From a virus, in the IMG/VR virus record IMGVR_UViG_3300028569_000028, positions 1 to 64,000 of that record: a stretch of DNA of 64,000 bases, one strand, 5' to 3'. Below the pieces are notes generated by a model. It had not been told where the DNA came from. It saw only the letters and a program-made list of their open reading frames with translations, and searched no databases. Within the stretch, counting starts at the first letter, position 1. The number at the start of each line of letters is the position of its first letter. Below are positions 1 to 35,898 of this stretch, one piece after another. Both the position numbers and the translations under genes were made by a program.

Positions 1-40
1 CCCCCCCCTGCTGGGCTGGCCTCGCTCGTACCTCATCCCT

Positions 41-56
41 TGGCACAACTCTTGCA
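41..56 (+). promoter_or_regulatory. sigma54 (-24/-12) consensus site
   Basis: TGGCACAACTCTTGCA = TGGCAC-N5-TTGCA, GG-N10-GC spacing exact. Confidence 0.7.
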
Positions 57-59
57 CCA

Positions 60-75
60 TGCAACACTCATGCCA
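60..75 (-). promoter_or_regulatory. sigma54 consensus site, facing the site at 41-56
   Basis: reverse complement TGGCATGAGTGTTGCA, GG-N10-GC. Confidence 0.65.
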
Positions 76-95
76 TAGCTACGTGCCCTCCTAGT

Positions 96-111
96 TGGCA
101 CAGGACTTGCT
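96..111 (+). promoter_or_regulatory. sigma54 consensus site
   Basis: TGGCACAGGACTTGCT, GG-N10-GC. Confidence 0.7.
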
Positions 112-321
112 AGTCAGCTGGCTGCCAGTAATAGTTGGCATCTTTCTCAAGCCAGTCATTCACTTCTTTCATACTAGTAACTGTTGTGATTGTTTGGTCA
201 GTTGTTCCATCAAAGATAACATAAAGCATATACTTCTCCAATGTTTGTTTCTCTCCTAAGTTATAACACGGTTCCAGCCAAACGCACCAAACGTAGCAAT
301 CTCATGGGGTTATGCCATAAG

Positions 322-350
322 TTGACAGGCTGGGCGTTTACCTGTAGTAT
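322..350 (+). promoter_or_regulatory. sigma70-type early promoter
   Basis: TTGACA-17bp-TAGTAT just upstream of ORF 367. Confidence 0.7.
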
Positions 351-366
351 CTAGGTTATCAACACG

Positions 367-618
367 ATGCAACAAGGGGACAACATGAAGCTTTCATTAT
401 ACAAGTCACTGCTCACAAACAAGCGTACAGTGGTTGTTCTTAGTATTGGGAAGTGCGGTCATGAGGGCTATAGAGAAGTACAGGTAACATATCGCATGGG
501 GCACTACCAGTATCAGATAACTGAAGGCTACACTTGGTTGACAGCTGGATCATTGCCGGGAGAGAAGGGCTTGAAGAGTGTGCTGAATATATTGGAAGGG
601 AAGGCTAAGGCTTTATAA
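367..618 (+). CDS. hypothetical early protein
   Basis: ORF between promoter and terminator; likely start is ATG 385 after AAGGGG. Confidence 0.6.
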   Translation: MQQGDNMKLSLYKSLLTNKRTVVVLSIGKCGHEGYREVQVTYRMGHYQYQITEGYTWLTAGSLPGEKGLKSVLNILEGKAKAL

Positions 619-693
619 AACATATCGAGGGAAGCTTAAGTAGTTGTTTTCACAACGTCCATATGCTTACTTTTCCCTCATTTAACCCACCCC

Positions 694-735
694 AAAGAGC
701 TTGTGCTATACATTGCGCAGGCTCTTTTCTTTTTC
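694..735 (+). terminator. intrinsic terminator
   Basis: AAAGAGCTTGTGC-loop-GCGCAGGCTCTTT followed by a T-rich run. Confidence 0.65.
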
Positions 736-895
736 TTCCAATTGGATGTATAAAGCTTTTTGTTTGATAAGTTGACGTAACAAGTCTTAAGAGTGACGAT
801 ATTTCTTGTTTAGCTTAATCGACATGGGGCTAAACAAAGACACTTAACCTTAGAGTGTCACGTCAAACAAGTTTAGTTGAAGGAGAGTTTCTACC

Positions 896-911
896 TTCAA
901 AAACCATGCCA
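896..911 (-). promoter_or_regulatory. near-consensus sigma54 site
   Basis: rc TGGCATGGTTTTTGAA (TTGA instead of TTGC at -12). Confidence 0.4.
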
Positions 912-947
912 ATCGGTGGATGACATAGTGGGAATTTTTATTCCCTT

Positions 948-964
948 TGCAAGTCCTGTGCCAA
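948..964 (-). promoter_or_regulatory. sigma54 consensus site; 16-bp perfect inverted repeat of 95-110
   Basis: rc TTGGCACAGGACTTGCA. Confidence 0.7.
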
Positions 965-7779: not shown

Positions 7780-8982
7780 ATGAATAAACTTCAGCAATCA
7801 ATTATTTCTCTAATCTTCTCAGAACCTTTCTACGGACATTTGATTTCAAAGATGCGAATAACTAAAACTGATAAAATTCCTACAGCTGGAGTTTATATTA
7901 CTGATAAGATTAACCTAACTTACAATGAGGAATGGCTTGAAAGCTTAGAGCTTATCGATGTTGTGAAAGTGCTTAAGCATGAGTGTGCGCATATTTTACA
8001 AGAGCATATTACAAGAGCTAAACAGATTGGAGCAACTAGTCAAGAACTTCACAAGCGTTTTAACATTGCCACAGATGCAACTATTAATACCCACGATCTT
8101 ATTCCAACAGTTGAAAAGATTGGTGGAGTTACAATCAAAAGCCTAAATGAAATGCTTAAGGGAATGCTTGATAAAGCTAACGAAAAAGATAAAGGTAAAA
8201 GAAAGTTTAAGCCATTAGAAGAAGGAAAGCTTGCGGAGTATTATTACAACCGACTCAATGAGTTTGCAGAAGAAAATGCTGATATCCTTCCAGAGGGTGG
8301 AGGAATGGGTGAAACTATGGATGATCATTCTACTTGGGAACAATCCGAAGGGAATGAAGAAATGCAGAAAGAAATAGCAAAGCAAGCCATTAATGATGCA
8401 GTTAAAGGTGCTGGCGGTATTGGAAATTTGCCGGGAGATATTGCAGCACTTGTAAGTGATATGAATAAAAGCCAAGTTAACTGGAAACAACAGCTTAGAC
8501 AGATGTTCGTAAGTGCGCAAAAGAGTATAAAAGAATCAACAAGAAAAAGACGTAATAGACGTTATGGAATTCTCCAGCCGGGGTCAAAAAGAAAGCCTAA
8601 ATTTAAAGTTACCGTTGCAGTAGATACCTCAGGATCAATGAGTGGAGAACCTTTAAAACATGCGTGGGCTGAACTTTCCGCAATTCACAGCTCATTTACT
8701 GACATAGAGCTGATAGTAATAGAAGCCGACTGTGTTGTGCAGAATGTTTACGAATTTAATCCTAAACAAGTACCTGAATTTAAAGGAACTGGCGGCACAA
8801 GTTATTCTCCGGCAATACAAAAGGCAGCTGAACTTAAAACGGAACTACTGGTATTCATTGGAGACATGGACGCAGCGGATAAGCCAAATAAACCCAAGTT
8901 CCCTGTTGTTTGGTGCGTAACTGGAAATTCAAATCCTCCTGCCGACTTTGGAAAAGTTGTAAGAATAGAGGTAGGTAAATAA
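7780..8982 (+). CDS. metallopeptidase + vWA domain protein (DUF2201-like), MoxR partner
   Basis: HECAH zincin motif; MIDAS DTSGSM; GTGGT; DMD. Confidence 0.85.
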   Translation: MNKLQQSIISLIFSEPFYGHLISKMRITKTDKIPTAGVYITDKINLTYNEEWLESLELIDVVKVLKHECAHILQEHITRAKQIGATSQELHKRFNIATDATINTHDLIPTVEKIGGVTIKSLNEMLKGMLDKANEKDKGKRKFKPLEEGKLAEYYYNRLNEFAEENADILPEGGGMGETMDDHSTWEQSEGNEEMQKEIAKQAINDAVKGAGGIGNLPGDIAALVSDMNKSQVNWKQQLRQMFVSAQKSIKESTRKRRNRRYGILQPGSKRKPKFKVTVAVDTSGSMSGEPLKHAWAELSAIHSSFTDIELIVIEADCVVQNVYEFNPKQVPEFKGTGGTSYSPAIQKAAELKTELLVFIGDMDAADKPNKPKFPVVWCVTGNSNPPADFGKVVRIEVGK

Positions 8983-32983: not shown

Positions 32984-33120
32984 GTTCTTGGAAAGAGGTG
33001 GATTTGCCACTGGAGTAGTATTAATTGGAGACTGTAAGAAATAATTATTGTTTTTTCTTACGGAGTTTGGTATAGTATTATTACAAACAATAGCGTTTGT
33101 TTATTTTTATTGGAGTTTTC

Positions 33121-33891
33121 ATGAATAAGGTTTTACTAATTCTATTATGTATTTGTTCTACAGCTATAGCTAAAAATGACGATATTACGCTAACGGAAGA
33201 TAATTTTGTTTCATTCAATCGACAAGTTAGCGATGAGTATACTTCTAAGAAAACTCTTGAGATTATTAAAAAAGCTAAAAAGGGAATTCCTCTATATTTA
33301 GTACTTGATACTCCGGGCGGATCGGTAAGTGCAGGATTAGCCTTTATTGATGCTGTTAAGAGTTTAAAAGTTCCCGTACACACCATTACAATCTTTGCTG
33401 CTTCTATGGGATACCAAATGGTACAGGAACTCGGAACTCGATACATTACATCATCTGGAACTCTTATGAGTCATAGAGGTGCGGTTGGAGGTTTATCTGG
33501 GCAAGTGCCGGGAGAGCTTAATTCTCGACTAAACCATATCCAGTCCATTCTAAATGGAATGTCTACCAGAGCTGCTGCTAGAGTTGGTATGAGTAAGAAA
33601 GCTTATGACGATGCTATCGTTAATGAATTGTGGGTTTCTGGGGAAGAGGCTGTTGCTTCAAAACATGCTGATAAGCTAGTAAGTATTCAGTGTGAAAAAT
33701 CTTTAACTGATGGAACCTATACTGAAGAAATGTTTACCATCTTTGGTAAAGTAACAATTGTATTTTCTAAATGTCCTTTGATTTCATCTCCTATTAGTTT
33801 TTCTTTTGGAAAAGAAGTAAAATCTGAAGATATGAAAAAAGTAAAAAGAGTCATTGAATTAAAGAAGAAGAATATTAATTTGACTTTTTAA
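33121..33891 (+). CDS. ClpP/crotonase-fold serine protease with signal peptide
   Basis: LDTPGGSV..G, AASMG (Ser), LMSH (His), W.SGEEAV..KHAD; MNKVLLILLCICSTAIA signal. Confidence 0.8.
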   Translation: MNKVLLILLCICSTAIAKNDDITLTEDNFVSFNRQVSDEYTSKKTLEIIKKAKKGIPLYLVLDTPGGSVSAGLAFIDAVKSLKVPVHTITIFAASMGYQMVQELGTRYITSSGTLMSHRGAVGGLSGQVPGELNSRLNHIQSILNGMSTRAAARVGMSKKAYDDAIVNELWVSGEEAVASKHADKLVSIQCEKSLTDGTYTEEMFTIFGKVTIVFSKCPLISSPISFSFGKEVKSEDMKKVKRVIELKKKNINLTF

Positions 33892-34784: not shown

Positions 34785-34975
34785 TGTCTAAAACTGTAGT
34801 TATTAAAAAAGACGAAGAAACACAAGAACACTATTTTGATATGAAAGACTTGGAAGATTTGTTTGAAGATCCATCATTAATCGACCAATACTCTATGGAG
34901 TTGCGAGATGATGGTTCTATACTTCTTGAGTTTTTTGACAAAGACAATAACAAAATTTTACCAAATAAAGTATGA
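34784..34975 (+). CDS. small AbrB/SpoVT-like protein
   Basis: beta-hairpin/helix pattern ending ELRDDGSILL. Confidence 0.4.
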   Translation: MSKTVVIKKDEETQEHYFDMKDLEDLFEDPSLIDQYSMELRDDGSILLEFFDKDNNKILPNKV

Positions 34976-35898
34976 AAACTCCTGAACAAATAAAGTTGGA
35001 ACTAGACGAATACGTTATTGGACATGAAAAAACCAAGCGTTCTATGTCAGTTGCGGCTTATAATCACTTTAAGAGAATGGCTGGAAGTAACATTAAAAAA
35101 AGTAATGTACTTTTAATGGGACCGACTGGATGCGGAAAAACATACATGGTTTCTATTCTAGCTAAAATTCTAGGAGTTAACTTTCTTACAAGCGACGCTA
35201 CTCAATTTACCTCATCTGGATATCAAGGTAGGAGCGTCGAGGAGTTAATCACAGACATCATTGGTGTTTGTGAGGATGATGAAAAGAAAGCTAGTAAAGC
35301 TATTATATACATTGATGAAATTGATAAGCTTAGAAAAAAAGACTCCGCTGGTTCTGGTCCAGATGTTAACGGTCTTGGAGTTCAACAATCACTACTAAAA
35401 CTTTTGGAAGGGAGTGATGTACCTTATATTTCTAAATATTCTCAAAATGGAGAATATGATAAAAAGATGAATACTAAAGATATTATGTTTATATGTTCTG
35501 GAGCTTTTGTTGGTCTTGAATCAACTTCAATACCGCATCTAATTGATTTTGGAATGATCCCAGAGTTTTTAGGAAGATTTTCTGTAATTACCCAACTTCA
35601 AGAGCTTAAGTTTGATGATTATAAAAAAATCCTTAAAGACTCTAAAGGTTCGATTCTAAATTCATTTCGTGAGTGGTTTTCAAGTGAAAAAATTGAGCTT
35701 GTGGTCGATGACAGTGCTCTTAATATCATTGCACAAAAAGCCATTGAAAAAGGTCTTGGAGCTAGAGGATTACACAGCGTTCTTGACGAAGCTTTATTAA
35801 ATGCTCAATTTGAAGCCCCTAGTTTGACTAACAAGCCAAAACAATTTATACTTGACGCTAGTGTTGTAATGACAGGAAAATCTAAATGGGTTTACTAA
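34972..35898 (+). CDS. clpX: ClpX-like AAA+ unfoldase (no N-terminal zinc-binding domain, no IGF loop)
   Basis: LDEYVIG..K..SVAAYNH.KR; KSNVLLMGPTGCGKT; DAT..T..GYQG; IYIDEIDK; GVQQSLLK; GMIPEFLGR; GARGL. Confidence 0.9.
   Translation: MKTPEQIKLELDEYVIGHEKTKRSMSVAAYNHFKRMAGSNIKKSNVLLMGPTGCGKTYMVSILAKILGVNFLTSDATQFTSSGYQGRSVEELITDIIGVCEDDEKKASKAIIYIDEIDKLRKKDSAGSGPDVNGLGVQQSLLKLLEGSDVPYISKYSQNGEYDKKMNTKDIMFICSGAFVGLESTSIPHLIDFGMIPEFLGRFSVITQLQELKFDDYKKILKDSKGSILNSFREWFSSEKIELVVDDSALNIIAQKAIEKGLGARGLHSVLDEALLNAQFEAPSLTNKPKQFILDASVVMTGKSKWVY

Follow-up and report, generated by a model that had tools for sequence, protein, structure and literature searches.

Sigma-54-type sites near base 1

The stretch of DNA analyzed here, called the window, comprises bases 1–64000 of the 80,011-bp IMG/VR phage record IMGVR_UViG_3300028569_000028, which is classed as linear and 95% complete and represents an uncultured ~80-kb lake phage. 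Close to its base 1 lies a cluster of 16-mers that resemble binding sites of the host sigma-54 RNA polymerase, and this cluster is the subject of the present work. The genome is organized in two arms. The plus-strand genes run from ~77,736 across the contig end to ~36 kb, and the minus-strand genes, including those of terminase, portal, and capsid, occupy 37.7–77.5 kb. The divergent switch between them is at 77.5–77.7 kb, and the site cluster is located ~2.3 kb downstream of this switch. A DNA search of GenBank phages found no close relatives, and the nearest isolate-linked terminase, that of a Silvanigrella phage, is 29% identical. No tRNA gene was found in the window, and no Rfam family in its positions 1–1400. 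None of the RNA sequencing runs listed contains this DNA.

The window was searched with the pattern TGGCAY-N5-TTGCW, whose 11 specified positions are those of the sigma-54 consensus. The 64 kb contain exactly four exact matches (0.14 expected), all of them within 41–963, and none of 100 shuffled sequences had four or more. The matches belong to two arrays, array A on the left and array B on the right, with a small-gene cassette in between. Together with one weak site, they are as follows.

41–56, plus strand: exact sigma-54-type site; left half of a facing pair, the pair layout being kept in relatives
60–75, minus strand: exact sigma-54-type site; right half of the facing pair, 3-nt gap
96–111, plus strand: exact sigma-54-type site; last site of array A and left arm of an inverted repeat (95–110)
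896–911, minus strand: weak sigma-54-like site; its single mismatch hits the invariant −12 GC (TTGAA)
948–963, minus strand: exact sigma-54-type site; last site of array B, inward-facing, and right arm of the inverted repeat (949–964)

The preliminary description of this sequence had listed the same four exact sites, had seen that those at 41 and 60 face each other 3 nt apart, and had noted that 95–110 and 949–964 are perfect inverted copies; all of this is confirmed. The inverted repeat is 16 nt long and arises because the sites at 96 and 948 have a common spacer. The near match that it reported at 896–911 is present but weak, as its mismatch removes the invariant −12 GC. Its placement of all sites in non-coding DNA does not hold for 96–111, which overlaps the stop codon of a conserved 39-aa open reading frame (ORF) on the minus strand (110–229). 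The ends of the cluster are inward-facing, that is, the leftmost site points right and the rightmost site points left. The absence of an activator, noted before for the window, extends to the whole 80-kb genome, which has neither a sigma-54 activator domain (PF00158) nor a sigma-54 DNA-binding domain (PF04552). Beyond the window, the genome has a fifth exact site at 78041–78056(−), between two early plus-strand genes. This site points to the late operon 540 bp off, and one-mismatch versions of it exist in the related genomes G001 and G004 and none in G002, G003, and G005.

We then inspected what base 1 represents. The contig begins with C8 and ends with a C-rich sequence that in relatives precedes a poly-C run of 13–16. 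Seven related contigs (G002, G003, G004, G005, G009, G006, and G007) are continuous across the point corresponding to base 1. G001 overlaps itself across this point, and its terminus is a garbled G run. In two lake samples, the Logan contigs end just 10 and 13 letters past base 1. As seven contigs pass through, the break coincides with a homopolymer, and G001 overlaps itself, base 1 is most simply an assembly break in the homopolymer. The site cluster is internal to the early arm and is not a demonstrated genome end. Hence the “left end” of the preliminary description is a contig end only, and a physical DNA end or cos/pac site at base 1 is unsupported, given the relatives that read through and the homopolymer at the break. 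The ideas built on an end (a grip for genome entry, end protection, and terminal enrichment of the sites) are likewise not supported, with the cluster internal in most relatives and, in other phages, at the divergent switch between the two gene arms. The supposed end is a false lead, and the cluster belongs to a conserved module.

The conserved module in the phage family

Close relatives of the phage were found via the large terminase (TerL), at 82–91% identity. Every relative with a long contig keeps one cluster of 2–10 exact sites, down to 45% TerL identity. The distinct exact sites number 10 in G001, eight each in G002, G003, and G005, three in G004, and four in G009, and the control pattern with reversed letters has 0 matches in the relatives. 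A lack of conservation in related phages was what the preliminary description expected to speak against its proposal, and the cluster turns out to be kept in all long-contig relatives. The last site of the cluster is inward-facing and nearly the same, TGGCACAGACTTTGCA, in G001, G002, G003, and G005. At the syntenic place, the distant G006 and G007 (TerL 47% and 45%) have two exact sites each, beside a C/G homopolymer of 8–9. G025 and G031, found by the pair pattern described below, have structural genes in common with this family. The order of the boxes, TGGCA then TTGCA, and their spacing have no variant in any relative. Outside the boxes, the cluster DNA fails to align between relatives, and the five spacer letters vary from site to site. 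As the boxes are invariant while the flanking DNA and the N5 spacers drift, selection acts on the boxes themselves.

The module has an identical order in G000–G005 and G009. It starts with a stop codon, that of the small gene which closes the first early operon, and these genes end with ...ELL. The stop codon is followed by a conserved block of ~30 bp, ~45 nt of C-rich, G-poor sequence, the poly-C run, a GC-rich spacer, and array A, which family-wide has 3–5 sites in ~110 bp arranged in tandem at 25–26 bp and as facing pairs. A variable small-gene cassette follows, then array B, and then ~300 bp of non-coding DNA that leads back into the main early genes. Aside from the sites, the features of the module in the window are as follows.

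1–8, plus strand: poly-C run as assembled, probably longer in reality; contig break, C13–C16 in relatives
9–40, plus strand: GC-rich spacer from poly-C to the first site; 20–32 nt in G000, G001–G005, and G009
110–229, minus strand: 39-aa ORF with ribosome-binding site GGAGAAG, read toward array A; a similar 39-aa ORF is at the same position in G003
322–350, plus strand: sigma-70-type promoter TTGACA-17-TAGTAT of the cassette gene
367–618, plus strand: 83-aa cassette ORF without known domain; a similar 73-aa ORF is in G009
694–737, plus strand: intrinsic terminator-like hairpin (694–727) with T run, closing the cassette transcript
755–865, unstranded: conserved non-coding block with a hairpin of 9–10 bp at ~810–845; near-identical to G004

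The ~30-bp block, GACAGACTAACTAYAAAGTGGGAAATATAT (genome 79,926–79,960; L008:15926–15960), is almost invariant in six relatives, where it directly follows the stop codon, and is unique in the genome, without a second copy. The junction contains the 80-nt segment with the top C-minus-G value of the genome, and in all six relatives its C and G fractions are 0.33–0.42 and 0.10–0.12, respectively. A rut-type composition, that is, C-rich and G-poor over ~70–80 nt after a stop codon, is thus found at the junction, and we infer that this tract has the composition expected of a Rho loading site. A conserved RNA fold of the ~30-bp block and the C-rich tract is weak (−3.8 kcal/mol) and is not claimed. 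The poly-C run at 1–8 is the sole C/G homopolymer of at least 7 in the genome. Its length differs among near-identical relatives, being 13, 14, or 16 (genome 79,925–80,011 plus window 1–8; L069:6011–6023; L072:6757–6769), and relatives at 45% TerL identity still hold a C8 or G9 run that touches a sigma-54-type site. Across these genomes, the spacer corresponding to 9–40 is rich in GGCT/TGGC and is not conserved in sequence.

The near-identical G001 and G002 differ in cassette content from a point 20 bp right of array A onward. A 200-bp segment with a 73-aa minus-strand gene is present in G002 (L069:6160–6381) and G005 and absent in G001. An 11-bp repeat flanks it, and over the following 300–720 bp the cassettes are unrelated, with an HExxH protein encoded by one of them. 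The idea of recombination breakpoints at the sites was considered and rejected, as only the first breakpoint is near array A (20 bp) and the others are elsewhere. A peptide-pattern search of IMG/VR found no relatives of the 83-aa ORF, and no relatives of a 103-aa ORF were found in IMG/VR. To the right of the cassette, a second non-coding block at 1058–1125 is also near-identical to G004, and the sigma-54 sites between the two blocks are not conserved in G004. The blocks 755–865 and 1058–1125 may each be a small RNA or a promoter.

Facing pairs and clusters in other phages

The facing pair was searched with the pattern TGGCAY-N5-TTGCW-N2-3-WGCAA-N5-RTGCCA. It exists in at least 120 IMG/VR stretches, on contigs of 4–480 kb with GC contents of 0.30–0.66, and the pattern with its letters reversed has no match. 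Pairs with a gap of 6–9 nt were found in only 28 stretches, and 2–3 nt is the preferred gap in viral contigs. Among 185,579 bacterial and archaeal species genomes (596 Gb), only 17 stretches contain the pair; most of them are on small contigs of metagenome-assembled genomes, and one is identical to an IMG/VR contig. The gaps of the other arrangements have peaks at 8, 16–21, and 29 nt for back-to-back sites and at 9–12 nt for tandem sites. The back-to-back gaps are helically phased, the pair centers are 82% A/T, and the site geometry looks designed.

Complete genomes usually have one cluster each, and many phages have a single pair only. In seven of eight unrelated genomes of 41–68 kb, the cluster is exactly at the divergent switch between the packaging/structural arm and the other arm. 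The pair is 0.3–3.3 kb upstream of the large terminase in 34 of the 35 loci with TerL, and TerL identity across the pair-bearing phages falls to about 25%. Site orientation in the clusters upstream of terminase genes is balanced (63 vs 70). Most phages with the cluster carry a family A DNA polymerase. The densest arrangement, with as many as 10 sites per 500 bp, is that of some unrelated phages in which three or four facing pairs are stacked with periods of 43–67 bp, such as G040 (L126:418–596) and G012 (L078:12539–12706). The unrelated 41-kb phage G053 has one facing pair; its segment L230:4105–4175, flanked by a consensus sigma-70 promoter on one side and the first rightward-arm gene on the other, resembles a tRNA gene as judged by eye.

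The cluster was found in none of nine cultured phages (YuA, the Silvanigrella phage, Alcaligenes QDWS535, MEP301, VA-RY-3, Ss1, BcepC6B, and the Caulobacter phages RW and GB2A), among which are relatives at 41–46% TerL identity to cluster-bearing contigs. The Silvanigrella phage has one single site without a cluster. As the trait is patchy and cultured relatives are without it, the cluster is an accessory device rather than a core element of replication or packaging. The pair-bearing phages have no protein family in common beyond hallmark genes, and no partner protein was found. At BLAST sensitivity, the candidate cofactors common to 12 complete genomes comprise only DNA polymerase A, tail-fiber repeats, RNR, and similar proteins. 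The PF00158 activator domain is absent from all 47 other phage records with the pair, and none of 33 records encodes a sigma-54 DNA-binding domain. Phage arrays or facing pairs of sigma-54 sites were not described in any paper found by a full-text literature search.

The binding factor and its possible roles

The preliminary description had interpreted the motif as a sigma-54 site, and the invariant boxes, the extended consensus, and the recurrence at 30–66% GC support this identity. Of the functions it proposed, a decoy for sigma-54 and a sensor of host state are possible roles. The extended consensus is written as YTGGCACGr...TTGCW (PMC13207237; PMC12754779). In line with it, at the position before TGGCA, which the search leaves unspecified, 30 of 38 sites have T or C, and the two positions after TGGCAY are purines in 31 and 33 of the 38 sites, respectively. 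A purine opens the spacer in 277 of the 294 half-sites (94%) that make up 147 distinct viral pairs. As the motif recurs in phages with GC contents of 0.30–0.66, the binder is probably a universal host factor, and we consider it likely, judging from the sequence, that the 16-mers bind host sigma-54 polymerase. The phage sites are identical to the bacterial RpoN promoters glnAp2, pspA, and nifH in the −24 GG and −12 GC boxes, their spacing, and the extended consensus. In contrast to these promoters, the phage sites are clustered in both orientations, often form facing pairs 2–3 nt apart, and have neither an activator gene nor a consistent downstream gene.

Among bacterial polymerase forms, that with sigma-54 is the only one known to be tightly bound to its sites and nevertheless inactive before an ATPase activator intervenes. 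In our preferred reading, whose probability we put at about 0.35, host sigma-54 polymerase docks silently on the sites and, coupled with the Rho-type tract, forms a cis-acting boundary to transcription. Specifically, the polymerase would sit on the sites as a silent closed complex and stall the polymerases that read out of the first early operon or the cassette, and Rho or collision would then terminate the stalled transcripts. Once phage DNA copies exceed the scarce sigma-54, or a host activator fires the sites, occupancy would fall, and by either route the boundary would become dependent on time or state. The start of the module argues for a boundary, being right after the stop of the last gene of the first early operon and at the top C-minus-G segment. 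A role other than promoter is favored by the use of both orientations and the absence of a consistent downstream ORF. The cassette is served by its own sigma-70 promoter and terminator, and the flanking genes have consensus sigma-70 promoters. Many sites in this family face a convergent ORF, non-coding DNA, or a partner site. In a facing pair, the predicted start of each site falls inside the partner site, and, judging from published footprints of the closed complex, two holoenzymes would overlap. Silent and intragenic sigma-54 sites have been mapped by chromatin immunoprecipitation in E. coli and Salmonella, for which repressor or roadblock roles were suggested. There, too, sigma-54 polymerase is bound without an evident regulated transcript, as is predicted for the phage; however, those sites are single and scattered in host genes, whereas the phage sites are phased arrays in control DNA.

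Several observations weigh against the silent boundary. Seven unrelated complete phages have the cluster between two divergent sigma-70 promoters, with no obvious read-through, and boundary action therefore cannot be the general function. The distant G006 and G007 keep the homopolymer and have no long C-rich tract, and in G006 three tandem sites all aim at the next gene ~100 nt off, in the manner of ordinary tandem promoters. An inverted TGCAA follows at 2 nt in 21 of 38 sites, even where the partner's outer box is missing, and a dimeric protein other than sigma-54 would also fit this. A broader proposal, which we advance tentatively, is that many unrelated phages independently adopted the idle host sigma-54 complex on phased facing pairs, free of an activator, as a boundary, a copy-number titration timer, or a melting nucleus. 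If true, this would be a sigma-54 function that bacteria themselves leave unused. At least 120 phage contigs with varied host GC have perfect sites in a layout that bacteria almost never use, without an activator; the phages may exploit the silent complex itself or tie early development to a host signal in an undescribed way. Either case would extend what is known of how phages take over host transcription and would provide compact, portable DNA parts such as roadblocks, timers, and sensors.

Alternatively, the sites could serve as ordinary enhancer-dependent sigma-54 promoters that respond to a host activator, perhaps one that senses nitrogen or stress, acting from solution or from unrecognized sites. 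This is somewhat unlikely in our view, and so are the condition-dependent sense and antisense transcripts over the cassette into the flanking genes that it entails. It accounts for the perfect match to the promoter consensus and for the aim of the three G006 sites, and a site of G001 at 8489 is ~90 nt ahead of a gene with a good ribosome-binding site. In the unrelated G041, the outermost sites precede the opening genes of the arms by 56 and 119 nt. The conserved 30-bp block is ~80–115 bp upstream of array A, a typical enhancer distance, although it has no dyad symmetry. A sigma-54-like promoter has been reported for Pseudomonas phage YuA (Ceyssens et al. 2008, as cited in bioRxiv 10.1101/2023.10.13.562163 / PMC10914365), which, going by that citation, likewise relies on host sigma-54 and is the only published precedent for a phage sigma-54 promoter that we found. 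YuA differs in having no exact site, one 1-mismatch site in 58.7 kb, and neither cluster nor pair. Active promoters fit poorly with the 47 records, none of which encodes an activator, and with the pairs, which put the starts inside the partner site in a layout almost absent from bacteria, the holders of real sigma-54 promoters. For many sites, the gene downstream is missing or convergent, and the flanking genes have sigma-70 promoters of their own.

A binder other than sigma-54, such as a phage initiator, a repressor, or the small terminase, is unlikely. The 16-mer would then be an iteron and the TTGCW-nn-WGCAA center a dimer site, as the inverted TGCAA, the tandem spacing of 25–26 bp, the two separated arrays, and the position of the pair upstream of TerL would suggest. 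Tandem triplets at 25–26 bp are present in G001, G002, and G005, and the orientations are mixed elsewhere; no initiator gene was found in or beside the module. Operator and iteron clusters (lambda OR/OL, P4 ori/crr, and plasmid iterons) likewise have repeated sites, palindromic or direct, in one non-coding region by early promoters, and two separated arrays. Yet operators and iterons change along with their cognate protein and from phage to phage, whereas the present motif is constant in unrelated phages and equals a host motif. A match to a universal host motif at 11 positions is very improbable by chance, and the specificity is the same across the whole range of GC contents and TerL identities. 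Moreover, the phages have no family in common beyond the hallmark genes, and the contigs run through the cluster, so that it is not a demonstrated end.

We regard as quite unlikely that the array is a sink, which after phage replication would titrate the few sigma-54 molecules in trans and shut down sigma-54-dependent host responses. Perfect-consensus sites of the tight-binding type, the missing activator, the dense arrays in other phages, and the specificity of the arrangement to viruses agree with a sink. However, a sink does not need a fixed geometry, while the 2–3-nt gap, the helically phased gaps, and the place beside early promoters are conserved; sites would be wasted in overlapping pairs, and many phages carry only one pair. 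To our knowledge, there is no common sigma-54-dependent anti-phage function. The least probable role, a replication origin or other unique cis site at which sigma-54 polymerase nucleates melting at the A/T-rich pair center or primes synthesis, would explain why most complete genomes have a single cluster, set in long non-coding DNA at the divergent switch, as well as the helical phasing as in initiator-box arrays, and the family A DNA polymerase of most of these phages, but the cultured relatives at 41–46% TerL identity have no site at all, which argues against a core replication feature. In addition, transcription direction confounds both the strand switch and the GC skew, and we know of no precedent.

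A ClpX-like ATPase was considered as a common cofactor and rejected, as among 33 phage records it was found only in the close relative G001. In the present phage, a ClpP-like protease gene at 33,097–33,891 is located 1 kb ahead of a ClpX-like ATPase gene at 34,972–35,898.

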